The position numbers and the translations under genes were made by a program. Positions 1-38,797 of a stretch of DNA of 64,000 bases are shown in pieces (position 1 is the first letter of the stretch; each line of letters opens with the position of its first letter). Below the pieces are notes generated by a model. The model was not told the DNA's origin and did no database searches. It saw only the letters and a list, made by a program, of their open reading frames with translations. This stretch comes from an uncultured Candidatus Saccharibacteria bacterium. GTDB lineage: Bacteria; Patescibacteriota; Minisyncoccia; Phycocordibacterales; PALSA-1337. The stretch spans positions 9,825-73,824 of the forward strand of contig CAYPPJ010000004.1 in assembly GCA_964412585.1 (NCBI GenBank), in the 5' to 3' direction.

Positions 1-400
1 CAGGAACATTGATAGTCACGGAAATGCGAGCTTTGTGTCCGTGAGGAATATCGATGCTCGTCGTCGATATGCGGAGTGAATCGCGGAGTGAATACGGACC
101 GCGATCATTACCAAGCAACATGACTGGACGCTGCAAGTCGCGAGACCCTTTGAAGTCTTCTTCGACTAACGTGAATGTCTTGTCAAAGCCGAGACGGTTT
201 GAAACACTCAATTGAAACGTCCTCGATTCTCCTGGACTCATCTCAACGTCGATCTTTCCTGGACCAACAACGAAGTCTTTGTATGCCACGTTGTCAGGCA
301 ATGCCTCCATGGATACTTGCGCATGCGCAGGAATACTGACGGCACAGATCATCGCAATCGTGAACAGAGCTATCTGAATGTATCTTGAAGTTAGGGACAT
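1..400 (-). CDS. Secreted hypothetical protein, partial (C-terminus lies beyond the window start); N-terminal signal peptide MSLTSRYIQIALFTIAMICAVSIPAHA
   Basis: Minus-strand ATG at 398-400 followed by an open frame running to position 1. Signal-peptide-like N-terminus. Co-directional and only 1 nt from the upstream gene, so operon-like. Absent from the ORF track because there is no in-window stop. Confidence 0.5.
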   Translation of the reverse strand, partial: MSLTSRYIQIALFTIAMICAVSIPAHAQVSMEALPDNVAYKDFVVGPGKIDVEMSPGESRTFQLSVSNRLGFDKTFTLVEEDFKGSRDLQRPVMLLGNDRGPYSLRDSLRISTTSIDIPHGHKARISVTINVP

Positions 401-401
401 G

Positions 402-1088
402 TTAGTTAACTGTTGCCGTCAGTGTAGTCGTGGCGACATAAGTATCATCCGGAATCACAGGACTTGGGTTCGGCATAATCTTCACGCGGAACTTGAGCGT
501 GGTTGTCGCACCCGAGGCTGGAGTCTGGTAGTTACGGTTGATAATCGTAAGCGGAGTTGAGGTTGCACCAACCCAGCAGGCATTCGCGGTATCGTTTGAA
601 CCAGTACCACACGCACCCGCGTTGTTATCCTTGAAGAGAGCTGGCAGATCTGATGTAGTCGACGCCTCCACGGTATAGCCAAAGTACGCCCTATTTGTTG
701 GGACGTTGAAGTTATAGTCCGCCGCGAATGATGACGATGTCGCGTAGGCTGGAATGTAGTTCGTTGAACTCGCGTTTCCAATCATGCCGAGCGATGAGCT
801 CGCGGTCAGCGTCATGGTGTAGCCGAGGTGATCGTTCGTCTGAACAATGACCTGGGTGCCGCCATCAGATGTACCTCCAGTAATACCTCCCAACGATGGG
901 CTCAGTATCACGTTCGAGGCCGGTGTGCTGAATGAGACCTCTGAGGTAATCGTTTGAGAGATAGTGAACTGGCTTGTGGCCGTCGTAGCACTCAAACTGA
1001 TTGCCGGTTCAGCAAGCAAGAAAAGAACAGCTACAATGAGGAGCGCTGTGAATCCTTGGCGAACTGAACTGTTTATAAGCTTAATCAT
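402..1088 (-). CDS. Secreted Ser/Thr-rich surface protein (signal peptide, low-complexity T/S/G-rich body)
   Basis: ORF 402..1295 trimmed to the internal ATG at 1086-1088 (MIKLINSSVRQGFTALLIVAVLFLLAEPAISLSA looks like a signal peptide). The upstream extension would overlap the neighbouring gene. The composition is Thr/Ser-rich and lacks the Glu at +5 expected of a type IV pilin. Confidence 0.55.
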   Translation of the reverse strand: MIKLINSSVRQGFTALLIVAVLFLLAEPAISLSATTATSQFTISQTITSEVSFSTPASNVILSPSLGGITGGTSDGGTQVIVQTNDHLGYTMTLTASSSLGMIGNASSTNYIPAYATSSSFAADYNFNVPTNRAYFGYTVEASTTSDLPALFKDNNAGACGTGSNDTANACWVGATSTPLTIINRNYQTPASGATTTLKFRVKIMPNPSPVIPDDTYVATTTLTATVN

Positions 1089-1120
1089 ATATTTTTTATG
1101 TGTTAATAATTTTCGACCAA

Positions 1121-1140
1121 ACTGAAACTTTCGTTTCAGT
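1121..1140. promoter_or_regulatory. Perfect palindrome ACTGAAAC-TTTC-GTTTCAGT, about 50 nt upstream of the secreted-protein gene start; candidate operator or 5-prime-UTR hairpin
   Basis: 8-bp perfect inverted arms with a 4-nt spacer, read directly from the sequence. It is not followed by a T-run on the minus strand, so it is unlikely to be a terminator. Confidence 0.35.
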
Positions 1141-1182
1141 GGACTGAACCCTTCGAATAAGGTCCAACCCACCAGCACGAAA

Positions 1183-2235
1183 TCACGGCGAACTGCCGTT
1201 TGTTTTGTCGCCAGATTTGATTGGAACAAGAACGTACATGAAGTCTTTGCCGCTCGACTTGCGGAAGACTGGAGTAATAACACCTGCGGTTCCACTCTGA
1301 TCAGGATGGACCGCTACGTCATCAGAAAATGTATTGCGAAGCTGTTCTGTGCGCGCAGCATCCTGTGCCGCATCTCCTGTCGAAGGAGCAACAACCATGC
1401 CGTACTCTGTGCCGTGGACAGAAATAGGATCAACCGTACGAACAGTAAGATCGCGGCTCTTGATGATGCGCGCAACAACAGCCTCGTATTGCTGTTCAAA
1501 AAAAGCAACGATGGCTTGTGCTGTCGAATAGACACCGGCCACTGATGAGTTGTTGACCGCAACATTTCCCGCACCACCAATGTATGAGATCGTCATTGAT
1601 GCGACAAAAATGAAAACGACTATAAAAGCCAGCGTCAAAACTGAAGTTCGAATCGGGTGAGAAATTTTTTCACCCTGAGCAGCAGCGCGTAATGTCGAAC
1701 GCGAGACCGTCGGATATGGTGAGAGAACAGCTTTAGAAGATTTTGTACTTACTGGTGACTGGCGAGAAAGTTTTCGGAACTCAGCCTCACGCTGTTCCTG
1801 TTCAATCTTGCGCATATGAGCAAAGACCGACTGCTCAGTCACGAACCAAGTATGACCGATCATCTTTGCATCGAGTTTGCCTGAACGACAGAGCTGCCCT
1901 ATGTAGTCAGCGGAATATCCGGACATCTCTGCAGCACGTCGTGCTGAGATCCTACCAACTTCGTCAGATGAAGTATCCTCATCTACACCCGTTTTGCTCG
2001 AGGATAATTTCTTGAAGTTTAATGCCCTGTTTTTGAAGGATTCAGCAGAGGCTGAAATGGCCTGGTGAGCAACTAAAGACTCCTCAGTTATGAACCAGGT
2101 GTGACCAAACATTTTTCCGTCCAATTTTCCTGCTCGACAAAGCTGTCCGATGTAGTCAGAAGAATAATCCGAGACTTTGGAAGCTCGTTTAGACGAGATG
2201 TATTTTTTACCTTGAAAAATAACGGTATGTTTCAT
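1183..2235 (-). CDS. Membrane-anchored protein with two tandem N-terminal MerR/excisionase-type HTH domains, one transmembrane helix and an extracytoplasmic C-terminal domain (ToxR-like topology)
   Basis: An internal duplicated block of about 45 aa (SDYSSDYIGQLCRAGKLDGKMFGHTWFITEESL and SGYSADYIGQLCRSGKLDAKMIGHTWFVTEQSV) matches the HTH_17/MerR pattern. A hydrophobic segment VLTLAFIVVFIFVASMTISYIGG follows it. Confidence 0.6.
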   Translation of the reverse strand: MKHTVIFQGKKYISSKRASKVSDYSSDYIGQLCRAGKLDGKMFGHTWFITEESLVAHQAISASAESFKNRALNFKKLSSSKTGVDEDTSSDEVGRISARRAAEMSGYSADYIGQLCRSGKLDAKMIGHTWFVTEQSVFAHMRKIEQEQREAEFRKLSRQSPVSTKSSKAVLSPYPTVSRSTLRAAAQGEKISHPIRTSVLTLAFIVVFIFVASMTISYIGGAGNVAVNNSSVAGVYSTAQAIVAFFEQQYEAVVARIIKSRDLTVRTVDPISVHGTEYGMVVAPSTGDAAQDAARTEQLRNTFSDDVAVHPDQSGTAGVITPVFRKSSGKDFMYVLVPIKSGDKTNGSSP

Positions 2236-2590
2236 GTGTCTCGTTTATAATTATAACTGACTTTCGCTCAAAAAAATCCGCAGAAATTCTGTGGACAACT
2301 GATACATGGATCTCAAAAAAATGGTATTATATTTTCAGTTCGAAAGGAGCGAAAAATGACCTCAATTTCAGTTTAGAACGACCTAAGTACCATCTTTTTT
2401 GAGAAAAATGAATTTTTTTCTAAAAAATCACCAAAAAACGAAATCCATTTTGAGCCATTTTAAAACTTTTTATTTAGGCTTTAAATTAATTATTAAATAA
2501 CATTATAAACCTTATAAATATTGATATTTATTGCTATATAATACTATTTAATTTATAATGTATAGTAAGGTTTAATAATCTTTAAAATAT

Positions 2591-2839
2591 ATGGACATCA
2601 CCAACATAAAACTTATAACCATCCAGCAGGCAGCCAAGATTTTAGGTGTTACGCCACTGACTCTTCGCAACTGGGACAATAGTGGCAAGTTCGAGGCCTC
2701 AAGACACCCTATCAATAACTATCGGGTCTACAAGCTTGCTGACATAGAGAAGCTCCTTATGGAGATCGAGGCAAGCAAAGGTAAGCGTCCTAACAAGAAG
2801 CAGGTCCGTAAGCTGGTAGTACAGCACCTGGAGGCATAG
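2591..2839 (+). CDS. Small MerR/excisionase-family HTH DNA-binding protein
   Basis: 82 aa. The motif IQQAAKILGVTPLTLRNWDNSGKF...YRVYKLADIEKL is typical of a MerR-type HTH. It is preceded by a 190-nt stretch that is extremely AT-rich. Confidence 0.6.
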   Translation: MDITNIKLITIQQAAKILGVTPLTLRNWDNSGKFEASRHPINNYRVYKLADIEKLLMEIEASKGKRPNKKQVRKLVVQHLEA

Positions 2840-4858: not shown

Positions 4859-5826
4859 CCCTTCAACCTCTTCACCAACTCCTCACCAAGCTTCTTGATC
4901 GAAGCATCATCGAGCACAGTCACTTCGAGCATATCCTCGCCGTACTTTTTAAGCGTCTTTCGTGCTGCCTTTATTTTCTTTTCATCTACCATATCAGTTT
5001 TCGTCAGAATAATAACTTCCTGTTTATCTGGGAGCCCTTCGCCATATTTTTCCAGTTCACGGCGCACTGTGAGATATGCCTCCTTCACGTCTTCATTTTC
5101 CAATGAAACAAGGTGCAGCAACACCTTCGTGCGCTTCACGTGACGCAGGAATTTGTGCCCGAGACCCTTCCCTTCGGAAGCGCCCTCAATAAGTCCTGGA
5201 ATGTCAGCGAGGATATAGCCTCCACGGAGAGCGCCGAGGTTTGGATCGAGTGTCGTAAAAGCGTAGCTGCCCACCTTTGCATGAGCAGACGTGAGTGCAT
5301 TCAACAGGCTAGATTTGCCAGCATTCGGCAGTCCTATAAGGCCCGCGTCAGCAATCAAGTTCAAGTCCACCTTAAAATCTGCCTCTTCACCTGCCATACC
5401 ATCGGTTGATTGCTCCGGCTTTACATTGGTAGAAGCTTTGAAATGTTCATTACCCAAACCCCCACGGCCACCATGAAGAATCTTGGAGACCTGACCATCC
5501 TCCACCAATTCAACAACTCGGCTTGATGAGAGATTCGTCACGATAGAGCCTATAGGCAGATCGACGTACTTATCTTCACCCGCCTTTCCCTGCATACTCC
5601 AATTTGCACCATCAACACCATCAGTCGCCTTAAACTGTTTGACCGATTTGTGGCGTGCGAGAATATTGATATCGCGGACGGCACGAACGTAGACATCCCC
5701 GCCTGGTCCGCCATTGCCTCCAGCAGCACCCGCAAATTCTTTGCCCTTTTCATGGCGCCATCGAACAACGCCGGTGCCACCGTCGCCAGCTTTCGCATGG
5801 AACTGTAATTCGTCTATAAATGCCAT
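4855..5826 (-). CDS. obg: GTPase Obg/CgtA (short form lacking a C-terminal extension)
   Basis: Obg fold N-terminus MAFIDELQFHAKAGDGGTGVVRWRHEKGKEF with its glycine-rich repeats, followed by the G-domain motifs GLPNAGKSSL and DIPGLIEGA. Confidence 0.9.
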   Translation of the reverse strand: MAFIDELQFHAKAGDGGTGVVRWRHEKGKEFAGAAGGNGGPGGDVYVRAVRDINILARHKSVKQFKATDGVDGANWSMQGKAGEDKYVDLPIGSIVTNLSSSRVVELVEDGQVSKILHGGRGGLGNEHFKASTNVKPEQSTDGMAGEEADFKVDLNLIADAGLIGLPNAGKSSLLNALTSAHAKVGSYAFTTLDPNLGALRGGYILADIPGLIEGASEGKGLGHKFLRHVKRTKVLLHLVSLENEDVKEAYLTVRRELEKYGEGLPDKQEVIILTKTDMVDEKKIKAARKTLKKYGEDMLEVTVLDDASIKKLGEELVKRLKG

Positions 5827-5827
5827 A

Positions 5828-6916
5828 TTAGTGAATTACCGAGTCGTTATTAGTTTTTTGCTCTGTTCGTATATCAGTAAATGATGTGCGGTAAAGCTCA
5901 AGCAAGGTAAACAATACGACGAGAATGACTGGGCCCAGGACAAGGCCTACGATGCCAAAGGTGATCAAACCTCCCAATACTGAAAGCAGAACGAGGAATG
6001 GGTGGATATGGATGCCGCGATTCATAAGTACCGGGCCGAGCATATGATCGATGAGGGTAACTGCGGCATAGCCCCAGATGAGCATGCCAACTGCATACAT
6101 TGGTGTACCAGATATATAGAGATACGCAGCTGCGGGTAGCACCACGAGACTGGTACCAAATCCAGGGATCAATGCTGTAATAGCCGCGAGCGTTCCCCAC
6201 AATGCGGGAGCCGGTATGCCAAATGTGTAAAACGCCAATCCAAGAACGACTCCCTCAAGCAAACTCACCACCATTGTGCCAGCAAACACTGAGCGGACCG
6301 CGCGTTTGAACACTCGAGTGATGTATTCGTCATTACTATCCAAAAGTGGACTCCAGGAAATAAACATCTTTTTGAGGATGGAGCCGTCACGCAAGAAGTA
6401 ATAGAAGGACAAAAGAAACACCAAGGCATATCCAGCTACTTTCGTCATGCTTGAAAAGATACTATCGAGGTTGTCGAAGACCCATTCCAAAGCGGTCTTG
6501 AGGTATTCAGTGATGTTGAATGAGTCAAAAGAATATGCAGGCAGAGCTCCGAAGACCGCTTGCGACATTGACTGTGAAAAGGCATTGAGACTCGTCACTA
6601 CATGCGAACGATTTGTCTCGTCGATAAGCATGCCGTAGAGCAACTGGACTTCAGCGTATACGCTCGCCACAAGGAAAAATAGAGGTACAAGAATGACGAT
6701 GGCGACAATGACTACTGTGGCTATTGCCGCTAGTGACGGTCCAAATCTGCCATGACCGAATACGCGGAGCATCAGACGGAATAGTGGGCGAAGCACGATT
6801 GCTCCAGCCAAAGCGAGAACCAGTGGTGTCAGGAATGGTAAAAAGATGAGCACCGTGGCGACCACTGCCCCCAAGAGAAGTATGAAGAAAAAGTAAGCGG
6901 ATATACGAGGATTCAT
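5828..6916 (-). CDS. AI-2E family (UPF0118/PerM-like) transporter
   Basis: 362-aa polytopic membrane protein whose N-terminal helices and overall pattern fit AI-2E family members. Confidence 0.7.
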   Translation of the reverse strand: MNPRISAYFFFILLLGAVVATVLIFLPFLTPLVLALAGAIVLRPLFRLMLRVFGHGRFGPSLAAIATVVIVAIVILVPLFFLVASVYAEVQLLYGMLIDETNRSHVVTSLNAFSQSMSQAVFGALPAYSFDSFNITEYLKTALEWVFDNLDSIFSSMTKVAGYALVFLLSFYYFLRDGSILKKMFISWSPLLDSNDEYITRVFKRAVRSVFAGTMVVSLLEGVVLGLAFYTFGIPAPALWGTLAAITALIPGFGTSLVVLPAAAYLYISGTPMYAVGMLIWGYAAVTLIDHMLGPVLMNRGIHIHPFLVLLSVLGGLITFGIVGLVLGPVILVVLFTLLELYRTSFTDIRTEQKTNNDSVIH

Positions 6917-6964
6917 TAATACTACATTACCACAACTTTAGAGATATGTGAACTTTCGAGAAGT

Positions 6965-7462
6965 TTATCCAAGCGTATTCACCTCGACAAGCTCTTGTTT
7001 CAGTATTTTTGCAGAATATTCAGCGGTAGAAGGCTTGTCAAAAAGAAAGGTCCCTTTAAATCGCTTACCTTGGAGAAAGAGTGGTATCCAATGAATATCA
7101 TCAGACCACATCTGTTCAAAAGGTATCTTATCTGTCGTGAACCACTGCGGACGCATTTCTTCGCTCTCAGTAGGTTTGCCGCTGAATTGAGTGACGCTAA
7201 AAATGTGTACTTCCAATATTTTTGGGTCATTCTCAAACTCAAAGTTGAGCACGCCACGTTCTTCTAGATCAAGCGGCGTGATACCAACCTCTTCTTTCAT
7301 CTCTCGTATAGCCGCCTGTTCAATAGTCTCTCCGTCGCCCAGTTTACCGCCAAATCCATTCCATCTTCCCTCTCCAAAGCCACGTTTCTTCATGCCAAGA
7401 AGAAGCTTATTATCTTGGTGAACCATGCACAGGGTCAAAGGTTTTATTTTCTTTGGTTCCAT
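6965..7462 (-). CDS. NUDIX hydrolase (MutT-like)
   Basis: Nudix box GGKLGDGETIEQAAIREMKEEVGI. Confidence 0.75.
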   Translation of the reverse strand: MEPKKIKPLTLCMVHQDNKLLLGMKKRGFGEGRWNGFGGKLGDGETIEQAAIREMKEEVGITPLDLEERGVLNFEFENDPKILEVHIFSVTQFSGKPTESEEMRPQWFTTDKIPFEQMWSDDIHWIPLFLQGKRFKGTFLFDKPSTAEYSAKILKQELVEVNTLG

Positions 7463-10144: not shown

Positions 10145-12778
10145 TTACTTACCAACACCATGACACTTCTTGTATTTTTTACCACTTCCGCATGGGCAGG
10201 GGTCATTTCTACCAACTTCAGGCTCTTTTGAGATACTTGACGAGGCCTTGGCGGAACCATCCCCCGCACCAATGATCTGAGCATTTTCTTTTACTTCTTT
10301 GAGATTTTTTGGCTGATTGTCTGTCGGTATGCCATTTACCATCGGTACAATGTGAGGCCAAACTTTCATGACCTGTGCCTGCATAGCTGTATTCATTTCT
10401 TTGAAAAGACGGAGACCCTCCTTTTTGTATTCAACCAATGGATCTCGTTGACCATAGGCACGCAGGTTGACGCTCGAACGCGTATAATCCATGACCTCGA
10501 GATGCTCGACCCAATACATATCGATAGCTTGCAAAAGTACAACACGAACAGCATTGAAAAAGTTATCGCGGCCAAATTTATCAACTTTTTCTTGTATAGG
10601 TGCGCTAAAATCAACAGGGGCAAATTCAATCGCCGGCCTCGCATGTGCCAATCTTACAGATTCGAATGCATCATTACGCTGTGAGGAAGGCGACCCACTT
10701 AATATAGCTTTAAGCTCATGTTCAACATCATCAATGTTCCCGAGCAACAGTTTCCTGCGACGTGCGTAGACACTCTTTCTCTGTGTATTGATAACATCGT
10801 CAAACTCCAGAACGTGTTTGCGTGAATCGAAGTTGAATCCCTCAATCTTTTCCTGCGCACTTTCGAGAGAGCGGGAAATGAGTTTGTGTTCGATCGGCTC
10901 GTCTTCAGCCACACCGAGTTTGCCCATCATAGACTTCATCATGTCCGAAGCGAAGACACGCATCAGAGTATCCTCCATAGATACGAAGAACTGCGTCTCA
11001 CCTGGATCTCCTTGGCGGCCAGAACGACCACGGAGCTGGTTGTCGATACGGCGTGCTTCGTGGCGTTCAGTTCCGAGGACGAATAAACCACCAACCGACT
11101 TTATTTCTTCGTAAAGTTCTGGGGTATTCGGGTTGCCACCGAGCTTGATATCGACACCGCGACCCGCCATGTTGGTAGCTATAGTGACAGCTCCCTTTTT
11201 TCCTGCTTGGGCGATAATCTCACCTTCACGCTCGTGGTTCTTGGCATTGAGCATCTGGTGAGGTACACCTTCTGCCTTCAAAAATTGTGAGAGTAACTCG
11301 TTTTTTTCAATCGAGACAGTGCCAATAAGAACAGGTTGCCCTTTTGCATGCAGCTCTTTTACTTTACGCGAGAGAGCCTTGAATTTACCCAACTCCGTTT
11401 GGAAAATTTGGTCATTACGGTCGAGACGGACTGGCTGTCGATTGGTAGGCACCACGCAGACTTCAAGACCATAGACTTTGAAAAACTCCTCTGCTGAAGT
11501 AGCAGCTGTACCTGTCATACCAGAAATCTTTGGGTACATACGGAAAAAGTTCTGGAACGTGATAGAGGCGTAGGTGCGAGACTCTTGCTGGACACTGACT
11601 CCTTCCTTTGCCTCAATAGCCTGGTGCAGACCATCGGACCAGCGGCGGCCTGGCTGCATACGACCGGTAAATTCATCGACAATAACAATCTGATTGTCCT
11701 TCACGACATATTCCTTGTCCCTCTGATAAATGGCCTGCGCCTTGATGGCAGTCTCCAAATGATGAACAGACTTGATGCCCTTGTCAGTATAAATATTATC
11801 AACACCAAGCATTTTTTCTGCCTTGGTGATACCGTCTGAGGTAAGTGAGATCGATTTGAACTTTTCATCGACGGTATAATCCTGGTCTTTAACAAAAGAA
11901 AGGACCATTGATGCAAACTGCTTGTAGGTCGTTTCAGCATCCCTCGTCGGAGCAGAAATAATAAGTGGTGTACGCGCCTCATCGATAAGAATAGAGTCTA
12001 TCTCGTCGACGATGGCATAGTTTGGCTCGCGTTGGCGCAAGCGATCTGGCGTGTATTCGAGGTTGTCGCGAAGATAATCGAAACCAAACTCATTGTTTGT
12101 GCCATAGGTAATATCTGCATTGTATGCTTCCTTGCGTGTTACAGGACGAAGAAACTCATGGACCACCTTGAAAGCGCCTGTCTCATCGCGTTCTTTATCA
12201 GTCGCATCTGCGGAAATACCTTCGGGAGCCTTTTCTTTGTGAGTTGAATCATACAAATAACTCGCCTCGTTATTGAGCACGCCAACAGTAAGTCCAAGAA
12301 ATGAATAAATCTGACCCATCCATGCCGCATCACGACGTGACAAGTAATCGTTGACTGTGACCACGTGCACACCTTTTCCAGTCAGTGCATTGAGATACGC
12401 AGGAAGGGTCGCCACGAGAGTCTTTCCTTCACCAGTCCTCATCTCGGCAATAGCACCAGAATTGAGCGCCATACCACCAAGAAGCTGTACGTCAAAGTGG
12501 CGCTGACCGAGAGTTCGACGAGATGCTTCGCGAACAACCGCGAATGCCTCAGGAAGAATCTCCTGTAACTTCTCATCCATTTTCTTTCGTGCATCTTCAC
12601 CAGGTCTCAAATCTCCAACCTCTAGTTTCTTTTTAAATTCATCAGTTTTTGCACGCAGTTCGACATCCGACAATGATTTGATTGCCGGCTCAAAAGCGTT
12701 TATCTTGGCCACGAAAGGCTCAAATTCTTTGACGCTTTTGGTGTTGGAGCGATTGAAAAGCTTGGATAAAAATGCCAT
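10145..12778 (-). CDS. secA: Preprotein translocase ATPase SecA
   Basis: 878 aa with SecA DEAD-motor motifs and a C-terminal [14 protein letters not shown] zinc finger. The start was trimmed to [11 protein letters not shown], the canonical SecA N-terminus. Confidence 0.92.
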
Positions 12779-12810
12779 ACGTAGAGGGCACTTTATCACA
12801 GTTTAGGACA

Positions 12811-12856
12811 ATAAAAAAGTGGCCGGACGCGGTGGTTGGTACTCACCGCGCCGGCC
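12811..12856 (-). terminator. Rho-independent terminator: GC-rich 13/14-bp stem (GGCCGGACGCGGTG / CACCGCGCCGGCC) followed by TTTTTT on the minus strand, 33 nt upstream of the secA start codon
   Basis: Inverted repeat and T-tract read directly from the sequence. Confidence 0.7.
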
Positions 12857-13022
12857 GACGCTAACACTACCGCACTTCAGTCGAACAACAATTCAATGAA
12901 GCGCAAAGCTCGAGTGAAGCTACATCCTCTAGGAAAGCCTTGAAGGAAACAAGGTGCGGGGTGCGAGATAAGCTATGGCTCACGCTTTGAGGAAAAACGT
13001 TTTGCCGCAATCAGCTTACGCC
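12857..13022 (-). ncRNA. Candidate structured leader or small RNA between murB and secA, about 210 nt counting the terminator, bounded by a sigma70-like promoter and the intrinsic terminator
   Basis: No credible ORF. Promoter-like TTGTCA-17-TAGTAT lies upstream and the terminator downstream. Family unassigned. Confidence 0.3.
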
Positions 13023-13029
13023 GTGGGAT

Positions 13030-13058
13030 ATACTAGCGCATCAAAGACAAACTGACAA
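13030..13058 (-). promoter_or_regulatory. Candidate sigma70-type promoter (-35 TTGTCA, 17-nt spacer, -10 TAGTAT) just downstream of the murB stop
   Basis: Sequence motif only. Confidence 0.35.
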
Positions 13059-13065
13059 TGCAGAA

Positions 13066-14094
13066 TTAATTCACCCATTCAACTTCACCTTCAATCACAA
13101 TCCCTGTTTTTTCTTTGACCAACCTCATGAGCTCATGTGCAAGTTCAACAACTTCTTCTGATGTTGAACCTGGTTTCGTCACAAGAACAAGTGCCTGCTT
13201 TTCATACACACAAGCATTACCTTTACACAGTCCTTTTACATTGCACACCTTATCCAGAATCCAGCCAAGTGAAACTTTGACGCGACCATCGGGTTCTGGA
13301 AAACCCGGTAATGCAGGATACGTATTCTTAAGTCTCATAAAGTCATCCGATGAAATGATCGGGTTTTTGAAAAATGAACCAGCAGTCCCCCACAACTTCC
13401 AATCTGGCAGTTTGCCCCAACGTATCGAAATCACAGCCTCTCGCACATCCCTGAGCGTTGGTTGGGCAATGTTCTTTTGCATAAAATAGTCAGCCACATC
13501 CTTGTATGACATGTTGAGCACGCCATGAGGGTCGAGAGCAAAAAATACGCGAGTGATGATATATCTGCCTTTTTCTTTTTTAAACACACTGTCTCGATAT
13601 GAAAATGCGCAATCAGCATTGACCAAATCAACAAACTGTTTTGTCTTAGTATCAAACGCTCGCACATTACTGACTACGGACCCCACCTCAGCGCCATATG
13701 CTCCGATATTCTGAACTGGCGCGGCACCGACAGTTCCAGGGATAGCCGACAGATTTTCTATACCATACAAACCACGCTCGACCGCATAGTCGACAAAATC
13801 ATCCCACTGTTCACCAGCACCTGCAGAAATAATGCGTTTGCCAACACTCCCTTCTTCAATTTTCTCCTCGATACCCATGAGTTCCATCTTGATGACAAGC
13901 CCACCAAATCCTTCGTCACCGATGAGAAGATTTGATCCTCCCCCGAGTATGAACAGTGGTAGGTCTTTGTCACGTGCAAAGTGTACCGCCTCTACGATAT
14001 CAGCCTCAGTTGTCGCACTACAAAAAAAGCGGGCCGGTCCGCCAATTTTGAATGTCGTGTAAGCAGCCAAGGAAATATTCTCTTGTATCGTCAT
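13066..14094 (-). CDS. murB: UDP-N-acetylenolpyruvoylglucosamine reductase
   Basis: FAD-binding N-terminus YTTFKIGGPARFF...ILGGGSNLLI and 342 aa, as expected for MurB. Confidence 0.88.
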   Translation of the reverse strand: MTIQENISLAAYTTFKIGGPARFFCSATTEADIVEAVHFARDKDLPLFILGGGSNLLIGDEGFGGLVIKMELMGIEEKIEEGSVGKRIISAGAGEQWDDFVDYAVERGLYGIENLSAIPGTVGAAPVQNIGAYGAEVGSVVSNVRAFDTKTKQFVDLVNADCAFSYRDSVFKKEKGRYIITRVFFALDPHGVLNMSYKDVADYFMQKNIAQPTLRDVREAVISIRWGKLPDWKLWGTAGSFFKNPIISSDDFMRLKNTYPALPGFPEPDGRVKVSLGWILDKVCNVKGLCKGNACVYEKQALVLVTKPGSTSEEVVELAHELMRLVKEKTGIVIEGEVEWVN

Positions 14095-14269
14095 GGGTGT
14101 GAATGAAAGTTCGGAAAAGTATATAGTTGTTTGCGCCGAATGATGGCGACGGGTGCGAGCTCCAAAATAAAATGTTTAAATTTAATGTGAGTACAGCCGT
14201 CGCCGTCATTTGGTACAATTCTGCCTTTTAGTATAACTTGACAAGAGCGTGCCATGCAAGTGGTGGTGA

Positions 14270-14378
14270 ACCCAAGAGCACGGCACAGGTGTGTCAAAGC
14301 GGAAATAGTAGCTACCACTCGAACCGCATACCACATCGTTTATTGTAGCGGCGACACACCTGTGCCGTGCTCTTGGGT
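14270..14378. repeat. Long hairpin element A: perfect 26-bp inverted arms (ACCCAAGAGCACGGCACAGGTGTGTC / GACACACCTGTGCCGTGCTCTTGGGT) around a 57-nt centre that contains the core ACTCG...GCATACCACATCGTTTA
   Basis: Read directly from the sequence. The centre shares a 16/17-nt core with element B at 56093-56204. Confidence 0.6.
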
Positions 14379-14430
14379 CAGATCTCGCGTCGGAAATTTC
14401 TACCGGCTTGCGCCGTCAGAAATCTTTCGA

Positions 14431-14478
14431 CGTGAATTTTGCAATACAAAATTCACGCAAAAGCCCGCCGAGGGCGGG
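14431..14478 (-). terminator. Two adjacent hairpins: the palindrome CGTGAATTTTG-CAATA-CAAAATTCACG, and a GC stem CCCGCC-GAG-GGCGGG followed by UUUUG on the minus strand (candidate intrinsic terminator)
   Basis: Read directly from the sequence within the 549-nt non-coding gap between the TPR membrane-protein gene and murB. Confidence 0.4.
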
Positions 14479-14577
14479 ACTTTGCGAAACATTTATTTTC
14501 TGGAGAGTGCCCACACGGGTACTCACGTCAGTATACTACCATATTTAGAGCATAGAATCAAGGCATCTCTGACCAAG

Positions 14578-14633
14578 TTATCCCCATAGAGGGGATTGCT
14601 CCGCTCGGCAGCCTCGCCGGGTTATCCCCATAG
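14578..14633. repeat. Direct repeat GTTATCCCCATAG at 14578-14590 and 14621-14633; the first copy is part of the palindrome ATCCCC-ATAGA-GGGGAT. TTATCCCCA resembles a DnaA box (TTATCCACA) with one mismatch
   Basis: Read directly from the sequence. Confidence 0.3.
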
Positions 14634-14643
14634 GGAAATAGTC

Positions 14644-17052
14644 TTATTGGGTAACTTTCACCTCCTGAATCTGCTTTATGACCGCATCTACCTGATCTTT
14701 GTATTCAGGATGATCTTTTGCAATCTTGCGGACCAATTCTATTGCTTCCCATTTCCTATTGGCAAGAGTATATACCTCAACAAGTTGCATGCTCAACGGA
14801 ACACTCGTCGGATCGCGCTCGAGAAGTATCTTAAACAGGGCGATTGATTTATCGTATTGCTTGATTACCGCATATGCGTGTGCAGTACGATCATTTTCGA
14901 AGAGATTCATAGTCGATGACGCGACCGCCCGTGCTTCTGTATCACGTTTTGCAACCACGAGACCGAGTATGTATGCCTGCTTTGCATCTTGGAATGTCGG
15001 ATCAGCTTCGTACGCCTCTTTGAGAAGTTTGAGAGCGTCATCAATACGATTTATGCCGAGATAGACATTGGCCAACTGAATAGCAACCGTCTGTTTGTTC
15101 GGCGTAAGCTCATGAGCTTTTTCGAGTATAGGGAGTGCTTCGGCTGCCTGATTGAGGTTGCTCAAGAATGAACCCGCCAGCACGTATCCGCGCGCATCGC
15201 GAGGGGCGTATTCCATCTGCGCCTTTATCTGTTGAAGTGCGAGATCATAAAATGCCTGCTTGGTAGGACCTGGGTACTGTCGCGCGACAATGCCACCTGC
15301 GCATGACAAAATCTGTTCTCTAACCTCTTGGTCAGCTGTTGCTGACAGCGATAACGATTTGGTAAATAATTCCGGATCAGGAAGTGAGTTGCGTGAGCCA
15401 CATGATATCAGGGCATCGATCAGACGTGTATTGGCCTGAATCATGCGGACATTGAGGAAATACATACCACCCACAAAGATGATAATGGCAACCGGTAAGA
15501 CAATGTATTCGACCGCTTCAAGACTGAACGATTTTGATGATGCGCTTTGATCTGCACGCTTCGACGAAGCAGAGCCAGCGAAACCAAGAAGTGCAAAGAA
15601 GAATATGTAGCTTGCCAAGTTATCGAAGACAAAGAAGTTGTGTATACCATATCCTATCACCAACCCCGTAAGTACACTCTTTTGTGATACTGATAATGAC
15701 GATCTCCATACTGCAAGAATGATGAGAACATACAATGCAAGATACACAATAAGACCGACAGCACCTGAGGCAACCAGCCAATCAAGATACACATTGTGTG
15801 CTCGATCGAACCATTGCTCCTGATTCCACATCTTTGGATTGTAATTTGCGTTAAAGATGTAGTTGAAGTTTTCCTGACCCCATCCGAGGATTGGTCGCTC
15901 AGTAAAACCTTTGAGAGCCATGGGCCAAATATAGGCGCGAGCCTGCGTCTTCGTATCGGTAAGAGAAATTGAGGCAATACGATCGAGTGATGGGCTGTTT
16001 TTGACAAACGAAGCATCCTTTACCAAGTAGAATACTCCGCCAAGAATAAAGAACAATGCAATAATGCCGATACTGATCCAGCGACCACTACGTGCTGCTG
16101 GATACGGAACACTGCCTCGATTTTTGATCACATATACAATAAGAGCTATGAAATATATGAGTGCGAGAAGCGCCAACCACCATACCGAAAGTGCAAACAA
16201 TCCGAGGGCTAGCACGAACAACGCATACAGGGCGACGAGGAAAGGAAAACTCAAGATAATCAAAACCTTTTTGTAGTTCACCCCATTTACAAACAAGGCA
16301 TATGACGCACATGTCGCCACCAATCCTATTGCGAGTCCGATCAGCGTACCGCGAGTCTGTGTGAGAAGAATAATAATCGCAAAAATAATAGACAGTATCG
16401 GATATGCCCACTGAAGGAAACTGGCATTGGCAATCCCTTTTGCGCGAGCAACAAAAAACAAATACATTGAAACACCGATATGCATGAGCAAATACACAGC
16501 CAGGTATGCCGCGTTACCGAGTGAAGCATCCAAACGGGTACTACCCTGATGAATCTCTGCCCAACCGAACTGTTGGCACAGAGCATAGATAGTCACAATC
16601 GAAGCAATAACCAACGAGGTATTGAACCAACGGTGCCACAAACGCTTGCCCTCTTCGCCTGCTCCAAAGATACCTGATGCTGACATGAAGAAAGCCCACA
16701 AGTGCGCGATGACCAACCAACCTTCCATACGCTCAAAGTTCGACATGAGACTGCGGACAATGTTCACACCGAGAAGATCAGCCACCAAAGCTACGACCGC
16801 AAACAAGGTGATCCCTATGGTGAGCGCATTGAAACGAGGACGATAACGCGCATCGAGAAACGCAAGAACAGCCCAACAGACCAAGGCTATTTCAACCAAG
16901 ATGCGGAAATAAAAGGCTTTGCCTGTAATAAAGGGGAAAAACATCCCGTCAGGAAAATTGAGCGGCCATACGGGTGTTGGAAATAAGGCAAATATCGGAA
17001 TGAGAAACAGTGCTGACAGGCCAATAGCTCGAAGTATTTTCTGGAGATTCAT
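14644..17052 (-). CDS. Large polytopic membrane protein with C-terminal TPR repeats (O-antigen ligase / Wzy_C-like; candidate glycan polymerase, ligase or O-oligosaccharyltransferase)
   Basis: 802 aa with more than 10 predicted TM helices in the first 500 aa or so, then TPR-like repeats (AYEADPTFQDAKQAYILG..., ALKLLKEAY...). The family assignment is inferred from architecture. Confidence 0.5.
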   Translation of the reverse strand: MNLQKILRAIGLSALFLIPIFALFPTPVWPLNFPDGMFFPFITGKAFYFRILVEIALVCWAVLAFLDARYRPRFNALTIGITLFAVVALVADLLGVNIVRSLMSNFERMEGWLVIAHLWAFFMSASGIFGAGEEGKRLWHRWFNTSLVIASIVTIYALCQQFGWAEIHQGSTRLDASLGNAAYLAVYLLMHIGVSMYLFFVARAKGIANASFLQWAYPILSIIFAIIILLTQTRGTLIGLAIGLVATCASYALFVNGVNYKKVLIILSFPFLVALYALFVLALGLFALSVWWLALLALIYFIALIVYVIKNRGSVPYPAARSGRWISIGIIALFFILGGVFYLVKDASFVKNSPSLDRIASISLTDTKTQARAYIWPMALKGFTERPILGWGQENFNYIFNANYNPKMWNQEQWFDRAHNVYLDWLVASGAVGLIVYLALYVLIILAVWRSSLSVSQKSVLTGLVIGYGIHNFFVFDNLASYIFFFALLGFAGSASSKRADQSASSKSFSLEAVEYIVLPVAIIIFVGGMYFLNVRMIQANTRLIDALISCGSRNSLPDPELFTKSLSLSATADQEVREQILSCAGGIVARQYPGPTKQAFYDLALQQIKAQMEYAPRDARGYVLAGSFLSNLNQAAEALPILEKAHELTPNKQTVAIQLANVYLGINRIDDALKLLKEAYEADPTFQDAKQAYILGLVVAKRDTEARAVASSTMNLFENDRTAHAYAVIKQYDKSIALFKILLERDPTSVPLSMQLVEVYTLANRKWEAIELVRKIAKDHPEYKDQVDAVIKQIQEVKVTQ

Positions 17053-18848: not shown

Positions 18849-18880
18849 ACGCACCCTTGGAAACGAGGGTGCGTTTTTAT
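18849..18880 (+). terminator. Intrinsic terminator ACGCACCC-loop-GGGTGCGT followed by TTTTTAT
   Basis: 8-bp perfect stem plus a T-run directly after the transporter stop. Confidence 0.6.
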
Positions 18881-22454: not shown

Positions 22455-23810
22455 TTAGAGATGTGAGACAATAAACGTCGAAATCCTGTCCACTGACTTT
22501 CCATCAAGAAACTGACACTGTGCTACGGCCAACTTTTTGCGTCCTTCAGTGTCTAGAGTTGGATCTTTGAGATACTTATTGACCCACGTTACCAATTCAT
22601 CGGTATTTCGAGCCATTCGTACTCCTCCATAACTGAGCGCTTTTGCATAATGCGTCATGCCATAAAATACTGTCGGGGATTTCGACAATTTACCATTGTC
22701 CTTGATCTCGAAATCAATATTGATGACTGGCTTATTAACGACAGCCGCATCGACTGAAATACTCGAGGCATAACACAGGATAAGCGACATGTGGTGCAAG
22801 GTATTACGCAATTCTTCAAGTTCGCGACCATTCATGTCCCAATCAGTTGAGCGTACAGATGAAAAACGGGTTCCCGGGATCTGGTAGTGCAAATACGGAC
22901 GCTTCTTGAGATCAGCATCCTTAATAAAGTCATTGGGAGAAAAACGCACGAGAATCTCGACATCATTGCCGAATTTCCCTGCCATATGCAACTCATGCAA
23001 GTGATCCATAATATCCCAATCCGAATTACTAAACATGCCGCCGATTGGCGAATAGACCACTAATTTCTTTTGTGGATCAATACCGATACTCTTGAAGAAT
23101 TCGTCGCGAGTCACACTTGGCGGTGAAAAATAATCATCATATTGAGGAATACCTGAAACAAAGAAATCCGAACGTGGGATGTGACTGTGCGTGGCCATCT
23201 GATCAAGGAGTGTGTCATTAAAGACGATAGTTTTGTCCGGGATCACCCGCAAAATACAGCGAGCCGTGGCGCGATCCCAACTATTGGTAAGCCCAATAGA
23301 TTTGACGCCATGCCGCTTGGCTGATTTGAGAAAATCGACTTCAAAATCCTCAAACAGATTGGCGAGTAAAATGAGATCGGGTTTGTACGTGCGGAAATAC
23401 TGATCAAAGACCGGATTTCTCGACAATAGGCGATCTAATGCACGAAATAACGCCACAAAGGGTCGATGCGCCAACATGCGATGTATGACACGCGAATAAT
23501 ACCAATACCACGCGCCACGGTCTTCTGAAACCATCTTGGCGCGCAGATCAGTAGTGCCTGTTTGTAGAAAAAGAAACTTCCACGAGCTAAAGAGTTTATG
23601 AATACCTACCTGATCATATGGTGCAACAATTTCATATGTTATACGAGGATCCGAAAATTCACGAGCATAATAGTCGGCGCGCTCCTTATTTTTTACAAAA
23701 AGCACTACGCGAGTACCGGAACTTTTTTTGAGAAGAGCATCGACAATACCGGTACGCAAAATATTCTTTGCCTCCACTCCTTCAAATACAGTAATAAAAA
23801 TCGTTTTCAT
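22455..23810 (-). CDS. Hypothetical GT-B-fold-like protein (TagF / KpsC-type capsule-transferase-like; candidate CMP-sugar-dependent transferase)
   Basis: 451 aa with a two-domain alpha/beta pattern and a KKLVVYSPIGG segment reminiscent of glycerophosphotransferase or capsule-transferase families. No definitive motif. Confidence 0.35.
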   Translation of the reverse strand: MKTIFITVFEGVEAKNILRTGIVDALLKKSSGTRVVLFVKNKERADYYAREFSDPRITYEIVAPYDQVGIHKLFSSWKFLFLQTGTTDLRAKMVSEDRGAWYWYYSRVIHRMLAHRPFVALFRALDRLLSRNPVFDQYFRTYKPDLILLANLFEDFEVDFLKSAKRHGVKSIGLTNSWDRATARCILRVIPDKTIVFNDTLLDQMATHSHIPRSDFFVSGIPQYDDYFSPPSVTRDEFFKSIGIDPQKKLVVYSPIGGMFSNSDWDIMDHLHELHMAGKFGNDVEILVRFSPNDFIKDADLKKRPYLHYQIPGTRFSSVRSTDWDMNGRELEELRNTLHHMSLILCYASSISVDAAVVNKPVINIDFEIKDNGKLSKSPTVFYGMTHYAKALSYGGVRMARNTDELVTWVNKYLKDPTLDTEGRKKLAVAQCQFLDGKSVDRISTFIVSHL

Positions 23811-28027: not shown

Positions 28028-28060
28028 CCGGCAGGGTCCCAACCCCTGCCGGATTTTTTA
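28028..28060 (+). terminator. Intrinsic terminator CCGGCAGGG-TCCCAAC-CCCTGCCGG followed by ATTTTTTAT
   Basis: Perfect 9-bp stem plus a T-run. Confidence 0.7.
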
Positions 28061-34670: not shown

Positions 34671-34703
34671 CAAAACGCCAAGGCTGTCCTTGGCGTTTTT
34701 TAT
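34671..34703. terminator. Bidirectional intrinsic terminator AAAACGCCAAGG-CTGT-CCTTGGCGTTTTTT between convergent genes
   Basis: Perfect 9-bp stem flanked by an A-run and a T-run. Confidence 0.7.
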
Positions 34704-37868: not shown

Positions 37869-38750
37869 ATGGCAACCACATTAACCATCGTTACACCTGT
37901 ATATAACGGCGCAAAGTTCATGCGTCAGACCATTGAGAGTATCCTCTCGCAAAAAGGCAATTTTTATATTGATTACATCATTATCGACGATGGATCTACG
38001 GACAACAGTCTTGAAATTATGAAAGAATATGCGAACCTAGTCCAAACCAAACAATGGAAAACCGAGTGTCTCGGTATTGAGATGCGCTACGAAACAGGCC
38101 CAAATAGAGGCCAGAGTCGCGCGTACAACAGAGGCTTCAGTATAGCCAAGGGACAAGTGTGCGCATGGATGAACGCCGACGACTATTATATGCCTGACAT
38201 ATTCGAACAGGTCGCGCAGCTCTATGAAAAAGACCCCTCTATCGATTTCATCTACGGTGATTGTTTGAAAGTATATGAAGATGGCACCAAAAAATCTTCC
38301 ACTGAGCCAAGACCTCGGCCCGATGAGACTTTTGAGAGCCTCCGTACTCGTGGCAATTCATTTGATTTGTGCTTCTTTTCAAAACGAATATACGATATGG
38401 TCGGGCCCCTCGATGAAACACTGAAATACTGCATGGATCTTGATTTCTGGTTCAAGGTCATGGCCGCAGGAAAAGTCGCCTACCTGCCGCAAACCATCGC
38501 AGCATTTCGACTGTGGAGCGGATCAAATACTGTGACAAAACAAGCCGGCTTTGATCGAGAACGCAAGATTATCGCGCGACGCTACGGTGGCACTATTATA
38601 CCGGCAAAAAAGATCTATGCGCTCCGTGGAAATCTGAAGTTCCTAAACACAATAAAAAGACAGTTTCCCGCCCCATACGAAAAAACTAAGAAGTTGTTCT
38701 ACAAAATTGTCGGAAAATTTAGCTACGGCAAGTCGCGTCATACAAAATAA
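37869..38750 (+). CDS. Glycosyltransferase family 2
   Basis: LTIVTPVYNGAKFMRQTIESIL...IIIDDGSTD is a classic GT2 N-terminus. Confidence 0.8.
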   Translation: MATTLTIVTPVYNGAKFMRQTIESILSQKGNFYIDYIIIDDGSTDNSLEIMKEYANLVQTKQWKTECLGIEMRYETGPNRGQSRAYNRGFSIAKGQVCAWMNADDYYMPDIFEQVAQLYEKDPSIDFIYGDCLKVYEDGTKKSSTEPRPRPDETFESLRTRGNSFDLCFFSKRIYDMVGPLDETLKYCMDLDFWFKVMAAGKVAYLPQTIAAFRLWSGSNTVTKQAGFDRERKIIARRYGGTIIPAKKIYALRGNLKFLNTIKRQFPAPYEKTKKLFYKIVGKFSYGKSRHTK

Positions 38751-38777
38751 AACACGCCGCTCACGAGGGTGAGCGGC
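38741..38777 (-). terminator. Intrinsic terminator GCCGCTCAC-GAGG-GTGAGCGGC followed by a U-run on the minus strand
   Basis: Perfect 9-bp stem downstream of the minus-strand NUDIX gene. Confidence 0.6.
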
Positions 38778-38797
38778 GCCGTACCAGGTCCAGACCT

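Follow-up and report, generated by a model that had tools for sequence, protein, structure and literature searches.

This analysis concerns gene A, which encodes a 350-aa bitopic membrane protein in a 64,000-nt stretch of DNA (the window) from an uncultured Candidatus Saccharibacteria bacterium (contig CAYPPJ010000004.1), together with its promoter and the surface operon in which it lies (Table 1). We put at about 40% the probability that gene A is a membrane-integrated DNA-binding anchor or adaptor of a surface system of Paceibacteria, acting at its own promoter in a ToxR-like manner. This reading is supported by a short upstream box that tracks the gene family rather than the locus and keeps a fixed spacing to the −10 element, and by the near invariance of both the recognition-helix residues of the helix–turn–helix (HTH) module and the box core TCC.CA. 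We infer, as the most economical account of these sequences, that the nearly invariant recognition helix (S-D-Y-I-G-Q-L-C-R) binds the nearly invariant box. The sequences compared here are all metagenomic, and the conservation statistics are uncorrected for phylogeny.

The open reading frame (ORF) of the original prediction, encoding 350 aa at 1183..2235, was reproduced by our ORF call, and so were the two consecutive HTH repeats that it described. Residues 12–78 and 95–157 align to each other with a BLOSUM62 local score of 187 and share the core S.YS.DYIGQLCR.GKLD.KM.GHTWF.TE.S. The Pfam family HTH_17 (PF12728) matches repeat 2 at residues 101–143 (E = 6.5e-6, 26.8 bits against a gathering cut-off of 27) and is matched by 17 of 17 aligned relatives at E ≤ 0.01 (best E = 1.7e-9); gene A has no match to the Pfam families MerR, MerR_1 or MerR-DNA-bind. 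An AlphaFold2 (AF2) model built from the 17-sequence alignment gives both repeats the topology b-b-a-a-b-b-a at a predicted local distance difference test (pLDDT) of about 90. The fold has a beta-hairpin wing in addition to its two helices and C-terminal helix, and it can be superposed on Xis or BldC. When this model was compared with the PDB by Foldseek, the interpretable matches, namely TraN, Xis, BldC and RacA, all bind DNA, in keeping with the excisionase/MerR-like fold that had been predicted. The query was the whole 350-aa model, so E-values are weak, while probabilities are 0.9–1.0 and target TM-scores about 0.7. The matches include the mycobacteriophage Pukovnik Xis (4j2n; 30% identity, root-mean-square deviation 1.6 Å over 47 columns, target TM-score 0.72), the BldC–DNA complexes 6ama and 6amk (target TM-score 0.67–0.72), RacA–DNA (5i44; probability 0.96) and pIP501 TraN (4p0z), which has two such HTH units per chain. 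A sequence search of the PDB with the HTH region gave no meaningful match. The invariant HTH residues in the alignment of relatives include R17, A18, S19, Y24, D27, Y28, G30, Q31, L32, R34, G44 and W47. Each HTH leads into a helix or linker and then toward the membrane segment, with no MerR-type coiled-coil dimerisation helix or effector domain.

The single transmembrane (TM) helix of the original prediction corresponds to the one hydrophobic segment of the protein, at residues about 197–219, and the AF2 model places a helix at 195–220 that covers it. Of the Lys and Arg residues flanking the segment, three lie on the N side, whereas the C side lacks any; the net charge of the N-terminal part is +11. 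Because the positive charge sits on the N side, the positive-inside rule predicts an N-in topology. Hydropathy and charge thus place the HTH repeats inside rather than outside the cell, and AF2 and Foldseek return winged-HTH DNA binders rather than a fold foreign to DNA binding, the two points on which the original prediction might have failed. The HTHs are accordingly predicted to be cytoplasmic, with about 131 aa outside instead of the 170 or so first estimated. The conserved part of this outside region has the consensus G.aV.PS.G...D...K..I..(S/T)FSD.V.V.PD.SGtaGVItPVF....GkdF.YV.VP, and residues F303, S304, D305, G315, G318, P322, F324, Y334, V335, V337 and P338 are invariant in 115 sequences. 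Its AF2 models contain one helix and two to four short strands at low confidence (pLDDT below 60 with 17 sequences and 54.7 with 115). A domain without a confident fold of its own would be consistent with folding on a partner, for which DUF916 with WxL (PMC10599100) and ToxR and VtrA with their co-components (PMC9214523) offer precedents.

The conserved element of the gene A promoter reads as an asymmetric site, centred at about −48, that matches the DnaA-box consensus. Among 84 distinct upstream regions of HTH-family genes, 73 have its core TCC[AC][CT]A at 40–75 nt before the ATG, and in most loci the box lies on the gene A strand 50–63 nt upstream of the ATG. The consensus is TT[AGT]TCC[AC]CA, the commonest letters being TTATCCACA(G) with a T-run after them. 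Positions 4–6 and 8–9 are invariant, whereas A, G and T all occur at position 3, and position 7 has A in 54 regions and C in 19. Over 56 distinct spacers the enriched words were TTGTCCACAG or TTATCCACA, and TAAACATT. At the −10 position nearly all loci compared have (G)TTATAAT or GATATAAT; the distance from the box to (G)TTATAAT is fixed, 39–41 nt from the box start in most family promoters, and the ATG follows 13–15 nt on. The box also occurs upstream of paralogues without a MerR neighbour and of the second HTH gene in locus L045, a second box lies about 70 nt from the MerR start in many spacers, and the loci with fused giant proteins described below have three tandem boxes. The window holds five box matches against 2.4 expected, and TTGTCCACA at 2290–2298 is the sole intergenic one. 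This 9-mer differs from the DnaA box TTATNCACA by one mismatch. A comparison by eye of the CCACA and CCCCA box variants with the HTH residues showed no clean pattern and is confounded by phylogeny.

The upstream region does not hold a MerR-type palindromic operator in a 19–20-bp −35/−10 spacer: the element conserved there is not symmetric, and about 40 nt separate it from the −10 downstream. Gene A, which has neither an effector domain nor a palindromic spacer operator, is no MerR regulator. The imperfect 17-bp palindrome at 2278–2294 that had been proposed as an operator is indeed symmetric at 14 of 17 positions, but it is not conserved as a palindrome. Its right arm, which reads CTGCGG on the gene strand, is missing from L001, L087, L005, L009 and others and is conserved in no relative, so the symmetry amounts to no more than chance; the left part alone belongs to a conserved motif, the box. 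Three other readings of this region were tried and rejected. The box is not a general promoter or −35 element, since it is not enriched in the window and no sigma factor could span the 31 nt that separate it from the −10. The CCACAG..CTGCGG hairpin with its T7 run is not a terminator: the conserved −10 comes downstream of it, it includes an A.C mismatch on that strand, and it shows no conservation. Nor is the spacer at 2236–2590 a replication origin: it has one box and no switch of gene orientation, dnaA is missing from the window, and skew data over a few kb are uninformative. Neither dnaA nor oriC was found in the window or in the loci examined. Over the first 4 kb of the window the GC skew is slightly positive, and between 4 and 64 kb it is negative.

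A second short motif, CCGAGAT (ACGAGAC in the window), takes one of two positions, either adjoining the start codon on its upstream side or preceding the −10 by 4–6 nt. Motifs of this type stand upstream of gene A in L022, L024, L028, L044, L046, L047 and L053, and just before the ATG in the window (2236–2249), L012, L013, L020 and L090. No Shine–Dalgarno sequence is visible before gene A, and because the −10 is only 14 nt from the ATG, the mRNA may be nearly leaderless.

Gene A belongs to a very large family. A word-indexed search with gene A returned 457 relatives, all unnamed and from Patescibacteria/Paceibacterota, the closest genome being a Candidatus Taylorbacteria metagenome-assembled genome at 83% identity. 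A phmmer search with HTH1 alone (62 aa) against 1.84 billion cluster representatives gave 4,719 clusters at E ≤ 1e-3 and 1,112 at E ≤ 1e-10, again all unnamed, and literature searches did not find a description of the family. The N-terminal module, GKKYISSKRASxISDYSSDYIGQLCRxGKLDxxMxGxxWFVTEESL, occurs once or twice per protein. After it come a low-complexity linker, which differs greatly in length between members and often contains the motif D-E-R-P-L-L-P-x-L, a single TM helix, a helix of weak conservation and, at the C-terminal end, a strongly conserved stretch of about 65 aa. Because 83 of the 119 relatives that share the gene A C-terminal domain have one HTH, the other 36 having two, the tandem arrangement is a clade-specific duplication and not the defining trait of the family. 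The linkers of the single-HTH relatives P0033, P0045, P0060, P0062 and P0068 contain the short cytoplasmic motif Y-x-x-D-[DE]-R-P-L-L-P-x-L-x-K, which resembles a docking peptide for a partner and is not evident in the window protein.

In L029, L070, L073 and L086, the slot after obg, gatB, the MerR-like gene and the spacer holds one gene, with the HTH–TM module fused into proteins of 1,585–1,779 aa, in which the HTH or HTHs, linker and TM helix are followed by 1,400–1,600 aa of Ser/Thr-rich, fibre-like sequence. The HTH–TM module is found on proteins of 600–2,064 aa in about 28 loci, and the representative library has further members of 1,692, 1,699 and 1,995 aa. In proteins of about 640–660 aa (L045 and L054) a long insert separates the module from the C-terminal domain, both of which are retained, and the members of a large subfamily of about 310 aa combine tandem HTHs and a TM helix with a tail of only about 50 aa. 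The HTH surface is extremely conserved among paralogues whose outside domains are unrelated. Taken together, the sequences suggest that the HTH–TM module is a general cytoplasmic head for surface proteins. By Rosetta-stone logic, its fusion to giant proteins in the same slot argues that gene A and the giant proteins belong to one system, and it makes an anchor or adaptor likelier than a pure ligand sensor. Some loci (L045, L054, L061 and L086) have two copies of the HTH module. In some loci a signal peptidase I-like gene directly follows the fused giant gene and further, more divergent HTH-module genes lie nearby (L086 5671–6198 and 6449–7477, L045 9763–12486, L054 5539–6054), so that a genome can hold several paralogues.

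The chromosomal setting of gene A is conserved. Every long contig examined has the order secA, Nudix, AI-2E transporter, obg, gatB, a small MerR-like gene, a long AT-rich spacer and gene A, with gatB and the MerR-like gene on the strand opposite to gene A. The divergent pair of MerR gene and gene A was seen in 59 loci with spacers of 183–1,171 nt. Downstream come genes for proteins of about 225, 315 and 260 aa (B, C and D), and beyond these lie genes for giant proteins, from 2,500 aa up to more than 5,300 aa long; B, C and D keep their order in at least 20 loci. The two co-directional signal-peptide genes noted earlier are B (402–1088) and C (from 400 to the window edge), both with N-terminal hydrophobic segments, and their link to gene A is borne out by synteny in dozens of genomes. 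The operon is, however, not the small one first described, since its later genes encode proteins that range in length from 2,500 aa to more than 5,000 aa.

Genes B and D are paralogous (40% identity, E = 8e-37), with two invariant Cys residues and a C-terminal Y.ATTT[IL]T motif, and have at least 1,745 homologues without names. Pfam gave no match for B and D at E ≤ 5, and the 120 homologues listed of the 1,745 are likewise without a Pfam domain. PDB sequence searches with B and a B/D profile gave nothing meaningful, and neither a WxL domain (PF13731) nor a W-x-L motif was found in B and D by sequence. In gene B a conserved E-P-[AS]-[IL] motif right after the N-terminal hydrophobic segment may be a processing or sorting signal; the L008 counterparts of B and D lie at 4954–5640 and 6629–7402, with full-length C at 5642–6625. 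The orthologues of gene C match PF06030 at E of about 1e-3 in three divergent loci, and a profile of eight orthologues (A7) matches the Enterococcus faecium WxL-interacting protein (WxLIP) EfmWxLIP1 (9i25_C, 9i1y_A) at E = 3e-7 over 123 positions. A hydrophobic tail forming a TM helix closes the full-length orthologues, and the DUF3324 half of WxLIP was not detected in them by sequence. Gene C thus supplies the WxLIP component of a WxL/Csc cluster.

Between genes A and B lies the perfect 8-4-8 palindrome ACTGAAAC-TTTC-GTTTCAGT (1121–1140), which the original prediction took for an operator 47 nt beyond the gene A stop codon (1183–1185). The palindrome exists and starts 42 nt after the stop. 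By itself it is not exceptional, since perfect hairpins with 8-bp arms number about 18 in the window against about 7 in Markov shuffles; what argues for its reality is that it is conserved and covaries in relatives. There the A–B spacer has a long stem-loop that begins 0–5 nt past the stop (9 nt in L015). The short hairpin and then an invariant GGUCGA box come after it, and A/U-rich repeats extend from the box as far as the start of gene B. The 5' arm of the short hairpin, ACUGAAAC, doubles as the 3' base of the long stem, and in the window the two folds are equal in energy (−26.8 and −26.6 kcal/mol; z = −2.9 against shuffles). The short hairpin is kept in L008, L087 and L011, becomes CUGGAAC/GUUCCAG in L001 by a compensatory double change and CUGGGAC/GUUUCAG in L013 with two G.U pairs, and has a U.G pair in L089. 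Because G.U pairs keep RNA pairing and break DNA symmetry, 1121–1140 is best read as mRNA structure and not as an operator, and the compensatory changes and strand specificity of the stem-loop contradict the proposal of a downstream DNA palindrome bound by gene A.

Covariation in the element is extensive. RNAalifold on ten spacers showed compensatory changes in 11 of 12 pairs. In a covariance-model alignment (A5), both sides change in 17 of 24 pairs and 81.6% of cells are paired, against 35–46% in slid controls; none of 500 shuffles reached its covariation score. A covariance model (R1) searched over 886 kb matched only directly after gene A stop codons, with sense against antisense scores of 90.6 vs 22.7, 78.4 vs 45 and 67.7 vs 30 bits. 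The short hairpin starts 42–44 nt past the stop in five matched loci, and all 10 aligned spacers have the GGUCGA box unchanged, even where protein identity has fallen to about 31%. Orthologues with A–B gaps of 2–60 nt lack the element. The additional A–B spacers were taken from contigs encoding gene A homologues; a metagenome DNA-pattern scan for the hairpin and a metagenome protein scan gave no matches. The stems lead into UUUGGUCGAAAA and not into a U-tract, so they do not form an intrinsic terminator, and a consensus terminator and promoter scan found no terminator on the gene strand of the A–B spacer and gave nothing useful on that strand. An Rfam covariance-model scan of the whole window gave no match at gathering score, and a tRNA scan of the window found none. 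Repeats of the AUUAUUAA(A) type fill 1089–1112, with several tandem copies in L089 (1640–1710). The apical loop of the long stem usually contains UCGA, and pairing of this loop with the GGUCGA tail, or a protein site shared by the two, is possible. Several hairpins with GC-rich stems elsewhere in the window, for example at 18850–18873, 28029–28051, 34674–34697 and 38755–38778, may be terminator-like.

Under the reading that we favor, the HTH of gene A would bind the asymmetric box TT[AGT]TCC[AC]CA centred about 48 nt upstream of the inferred transcription start of gene A and of most of the paralogues examined. The locus would thereby be kept at the membrane and the operon would be autoregulated, in the way known from ToxR and CadC, which use another HTH class. 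The outside domain may dock onto the B/D paralogues, the WxLIP homologue C and the giant proteins, and in other lineages this docking would be replaced by direct fusion of the HTH–TM module to a giant protein; either the outside domain or the fused fibre would then report or organise the assembly of the surface complex. In the mRNA, roughly the first 12 nt past the stop codon are covered by a ribosome that is terminating there. Such a ribosome could thereby melt the base of the long stem and free ACUGAAAC for the alternative short hairpin, a translation-coupled RNA switch that would set the ratio of gene A to the downstream genes via termination, processing of the RNase III type or mRNA stability. 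The data show the fold, the predicted topology, the synteny, the fusions, the conservation of the box and the covariation of the RNA. What we infer is that the HTH and not DnaA binds the box, in which direction it regulates, that the C-terminal domain docks and what the RNA switch brings about.

Several points weigh against the anchor/adaptor reading. The commonest letters of the box, TTATCCACA, are exactly the DnaA-box consensus, which makes DnaA the obvious alternative binder. The window protein has two HTHs, yet only one box was found upstream of it, and the subfamily of about 310 aa, with a QLAR recognition helix, is often without the box. A surface fibre of 1,700 aa makes an odd classical sensor. 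Docking by the C-terminal domain is a guess, given a pLDDT of 54.7 even with 115 sequences. Some of the conservation could be inheritance, the sequences all being related; this concern is countered by the rest of the spacer, which is not conserved and ranges from 183 to 1,171 nt in length.

The box could instead belong to another factor, with the HTHs binding DNA non-specifically or at scattered sites, so that gene A would be a structural tether coupling the nucleoid or particular loci to the envelope and its fibres, much like RacA–DivIVA or Noc of Firmicutes but in one polypeptide. That the chromosome anchor RacA has the same fold (5i44, probability 0.96) is in favor of such a role, as is the sheer size of the family (4,719 clusters at E ≤ 1e-3, with two copies in some loci), and a module that serves as a generic N-terminal handle on varied surface proteins, including ones of 1,600–2,000 aa, suits an anchor over a ligand sensor. 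The near-invariant residues of base-contacting type (Y28, Q31 and R34) nevertheless argue for a specific target, and the tether, which would account well for the fusions, leaves the family-specific box at its fixed promoter position unexplained; we regard it as possible but rather doubtful. The box might also be a genuine DnaA box, placing the operon and the HTH–TM genes under DnaA (cell-cycle) control while the HTH of gene A has its target elsewhere, an arrangement compatible both with the anchor/adaptor reading and with the tether. The identity of TTATCCACA with the consensus fits this, and the second box in many spacers and the three tandem boxes at the fused-giant loci recall the clustering typical of DnaA. 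DnaA boxes of actinobacteria and cyanobacteria usually have G and T at position 3. The classical tolerance of the DnaA box, TTATNCACA, is nonetheless the opposite of the family pattern, which never varies at position 5 and has either A (54) or C (19) at position 7. Genes under DnaA do not normally belong to a single protein family with the site at a constant place in the promoter, and the spacer is no origin, with its single box, unchanged gene orientation and no dnaA in the window. Control by DnaA therefore strikes us as unlikely.

The HTH need not bind DNA at all: it might be a protein–protein module linking surface proteins to some conserved partner in the cytoplasm, for instance the cytoskeleton, the secretion machinery or the divisome. 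Excisionase-like TorI binds TorR, and the HTH of RodZ, a precedent for the architecture of HTH, linker, TM helix and outside domain, binds MreB. The extreme conservation of the HTH surface across paralogues with unrelated outside domains would suit such a role, and the linker motif D-E-R-P-L-L-P-x-L suggests further cytoplasmic partners. We consider the idea improbable, because the interpretable structural neighbours all bind DNA, the domain is basic and the cis box would go unexplained. Least probable of all, in our estimate, is the model of the original prediction, a ToxR/CadC-like ligand sensor whose tandem HTHs bind the palindromes at 1121–1140 and 2278–2294 to control a small operon. The architecture and the neighbourhood are as that model describes. 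Against it, the element at 1121–1140 is strand-specific, keeps RNA pairing and is absent where the A–B gap is 2–60 nt; the symmetry at 2278–2294 is not conserved; and most relatives have one HTH.

A more specific scheme, speculative and in our view quite unlikely, is self-tethering, in which the HTH, emerging from the ribosome ahead of the rest of the protein, would bind the box of its own promoter in cis and the TM helix would insert afterwards, pinning the surface locus to the membrane and translocon for co-transcriptional, co-translational export. In a stronger version the family would bind DnaA boxes generally, linking origin-proximal or DnaA-box DNA to the envelope in ultra-small cells, which would be a physical form of the membrane-attachment idea of Jacob, Brenner and Cuzin.

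Membrane-integrated DNA-binding regulators are already known as a kind. ToxR, CadC, TcpP and VtrA have, as is predicted for gene A, a cytoplasmic N-terminal DNA-binding domain, a linker, one TM helix and an outside domain, and their genes adjoin those that they control, as gene A adjoins those that it would control. Their DNA-binding domain is an OmpR/PhoB winged helix (Trans_reg_C), whereas gene A matches HTH_17 only in Pfam, so that there is no homology and gene A does not belong to the group; the outside part of the gene A family can also be a giant fibre. ToxR acts by tethering DNA to the membrane (PMC10629549), and VtrA and ToxR need a co-component encoded immediately downstream (PMC9214523), an order that resembles gene A followed by gene B. 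What appears new in the gene A family is the different HTH class, the fusion to giant surface proteins and the existence of a very large family specific to Patescibacteria. The HTH_17 proteins Xis, BldC and TraN share the fold of gene A, and TraN of pIP501 likewise has two units per chain. BldC and Xis bind asymmetric sites as head-to-tail monomers, which fits the asymmetric 9-mer box. These proteins are small and soluble, whereas the gene A family is membrane-integrated, with extracellular domains and its own signature YISSKRAS...DYIGQLCR. With RacA of Bacillus subtilis, whose MerR-like winged HTH attaches DNA to the envelope, and with Noc, gene A shares the concept of a DNA–membrane tether. 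RacA reaches the membrane via DivIVA and Noc via an amphipathic helix, whereas gene A carries the TM helix and surface domains in the same chain. RodZ, finally, has an N-terminal cytoplasmic HTH, a linker, a single TM helix and an extracytoplasmic domain as gene A does, but its HTH is of the Xre type, binds MreB and not DNA, and has no link to a surface operon. The DnaA box has the same commonest letters, TTATCCACA, as the family box, which differs in being single and fixed at the promoter of one gene family and not in an origin.

The operon itself invites comparison with the WxL/Csc clusters of Firmicutes, which comprise small WxL, large WxL and WxLIP proteins, the last with the arrangement DUF916–DUF3324–TM (PMC10599100). 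A WxLIP with a C-terminal TM helix (gene C here), small secreted beta-rich proteins and very large surface proteins are present in both. B and D are without a detectable WxL domain or W-x-L motif, the organism here is a Patescibacterium, and the cluster composition given in the abstract of PMC10599100 has no HTH–TM protein, in contrast to the gene A operon. On these sequences the gene A operon appears to be only partly a WxL cluster, sharing one defining component. RwpL, a regulator of WxL genes in L. plantarum, was considered as a relative of gene A and rejected, being of the MarR type and unrelated.

Table 1. Coordinates of gene A, its promoter and RNA elements and the neighbouring genes in the window.
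Feature	Position	Strand	Remarks
Gene A	1183..2235	-	ORF, 350-aa bitopic membrane protein: two HTH repeats, linker, TM helix, C-terminal domain
HTH repeat 1, Xis/BldC-type winged HTH	2062..2211	-	residues about 9–58; AF2 pLDDT about 90
HTH repeat 2	1813..1962	-	residues about 92–141; Pfam HTH_17, repeat alignment, AF2 pLDDT about 90
Single TM helix, predicted N-in	1579..1647	-	residues about 197–219; Kyte–Doolittle maximum 2.57
Conserved C-terminal domain, predicted extracytoplasmic	1210..1407	-	residues about 277–342
DnaA-box-like 9-mer TTGTCCACA	2290..2298	-	63 nt upstream of ATG, 43 nt upstream of −10
−10-like hexamer TATAAT	2250..2255	-	14 nt upstream of gene A ATG
Imperfect 17-bp palindrome	2278..2294	.	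symmetric at 14/17 positions; only the box-overlapping part conserved
Conserved long RNA stem-loop	1129..1182	-	directly after gene A stop; 5' UUUCGUGCUGGUGGGUUGGACCUU-AUUCGA-AGGGUUCAGUCCACUGAAACGAAA
Short alternative hairpin ACUGAAAC-GAAA-GUUUCAGU	1121..1140	-	mRNA form of the palindrome
Invariant GGUCGA box	1113..1118	-	0–3 nt after hairpins in close relatives; then AUUAUUAA-type A/U repeats to gene B ATG
Gene B	402..1088	-	228-aa Ser/Thr-rich secreted or anchored beta-rich protein; N-terminal hydrophobic segment
Gene C	1..400	-	first 133 aa, runs off window; WxLIP/DUF916 homologue with signal peptide
Small MerR/HTH_17-only protein	2591..2839	+	82 aa, heads gatB operon; Pfam MerR E = 1.3e-9

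The 82-aa MerR protein divergent from gene A may be the real regulator of one or both of the divergent promoters. The spacer between them (2236–2590; 355 nt, 24% GC) is unusually long for a reduced genome and reaches 1,171 nt elsewhere. Of 56 spacers, 32 contain the 8-mer TAAACATT or its complement AATGTTTA, in most cases no more than about 30 nt from where the MerR gene starts. It was seen in this position in L005, L018, L020, L089, L090, L070, L071 and L077, and the exact 8-mer is absent from the window. The two forms often make an inverted pair 17–85 nt apart, a candidate operator of the small MerR protein. Among the scanned ORFs in the rest of the window (10148–17052, 22458–23810, 37869–38750 and 56213–57499) are secA and several envelope and glycan genes, the latter encoding an O-antigen-ligase-like protein with tetratricopeptide (TPR) repeats, glycosyltransferases, a glycerophosphotransferase-like protein and a DUF4015 glycosyl hydrolase.

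Patescibacteria are a large, mostly uncultured group with tiny genomes and few recognisable regulators, and the epibiotic surface biology of these cells is poorly understood. In this setting, a very large unnamed family joins a conserved DNA-binding head directly to surface proteins, giant fibres included, and the conserved cis-element at the promoters of the family provides a testable protein–DNA pair. The operon also gives a first sequence-level link between a surface operon of Patescibacteria and the WxLIP of Gram-positive WxL clusters, and a new RNA element with covarying pairs lies between two of its cistrons. Should the HTH indeed bind the box, the family would represent a new class of membrane-integrated transcription factor or DNA tether, and it would offer a handle on the control or positioning of the host-contact apparatus in these cells.

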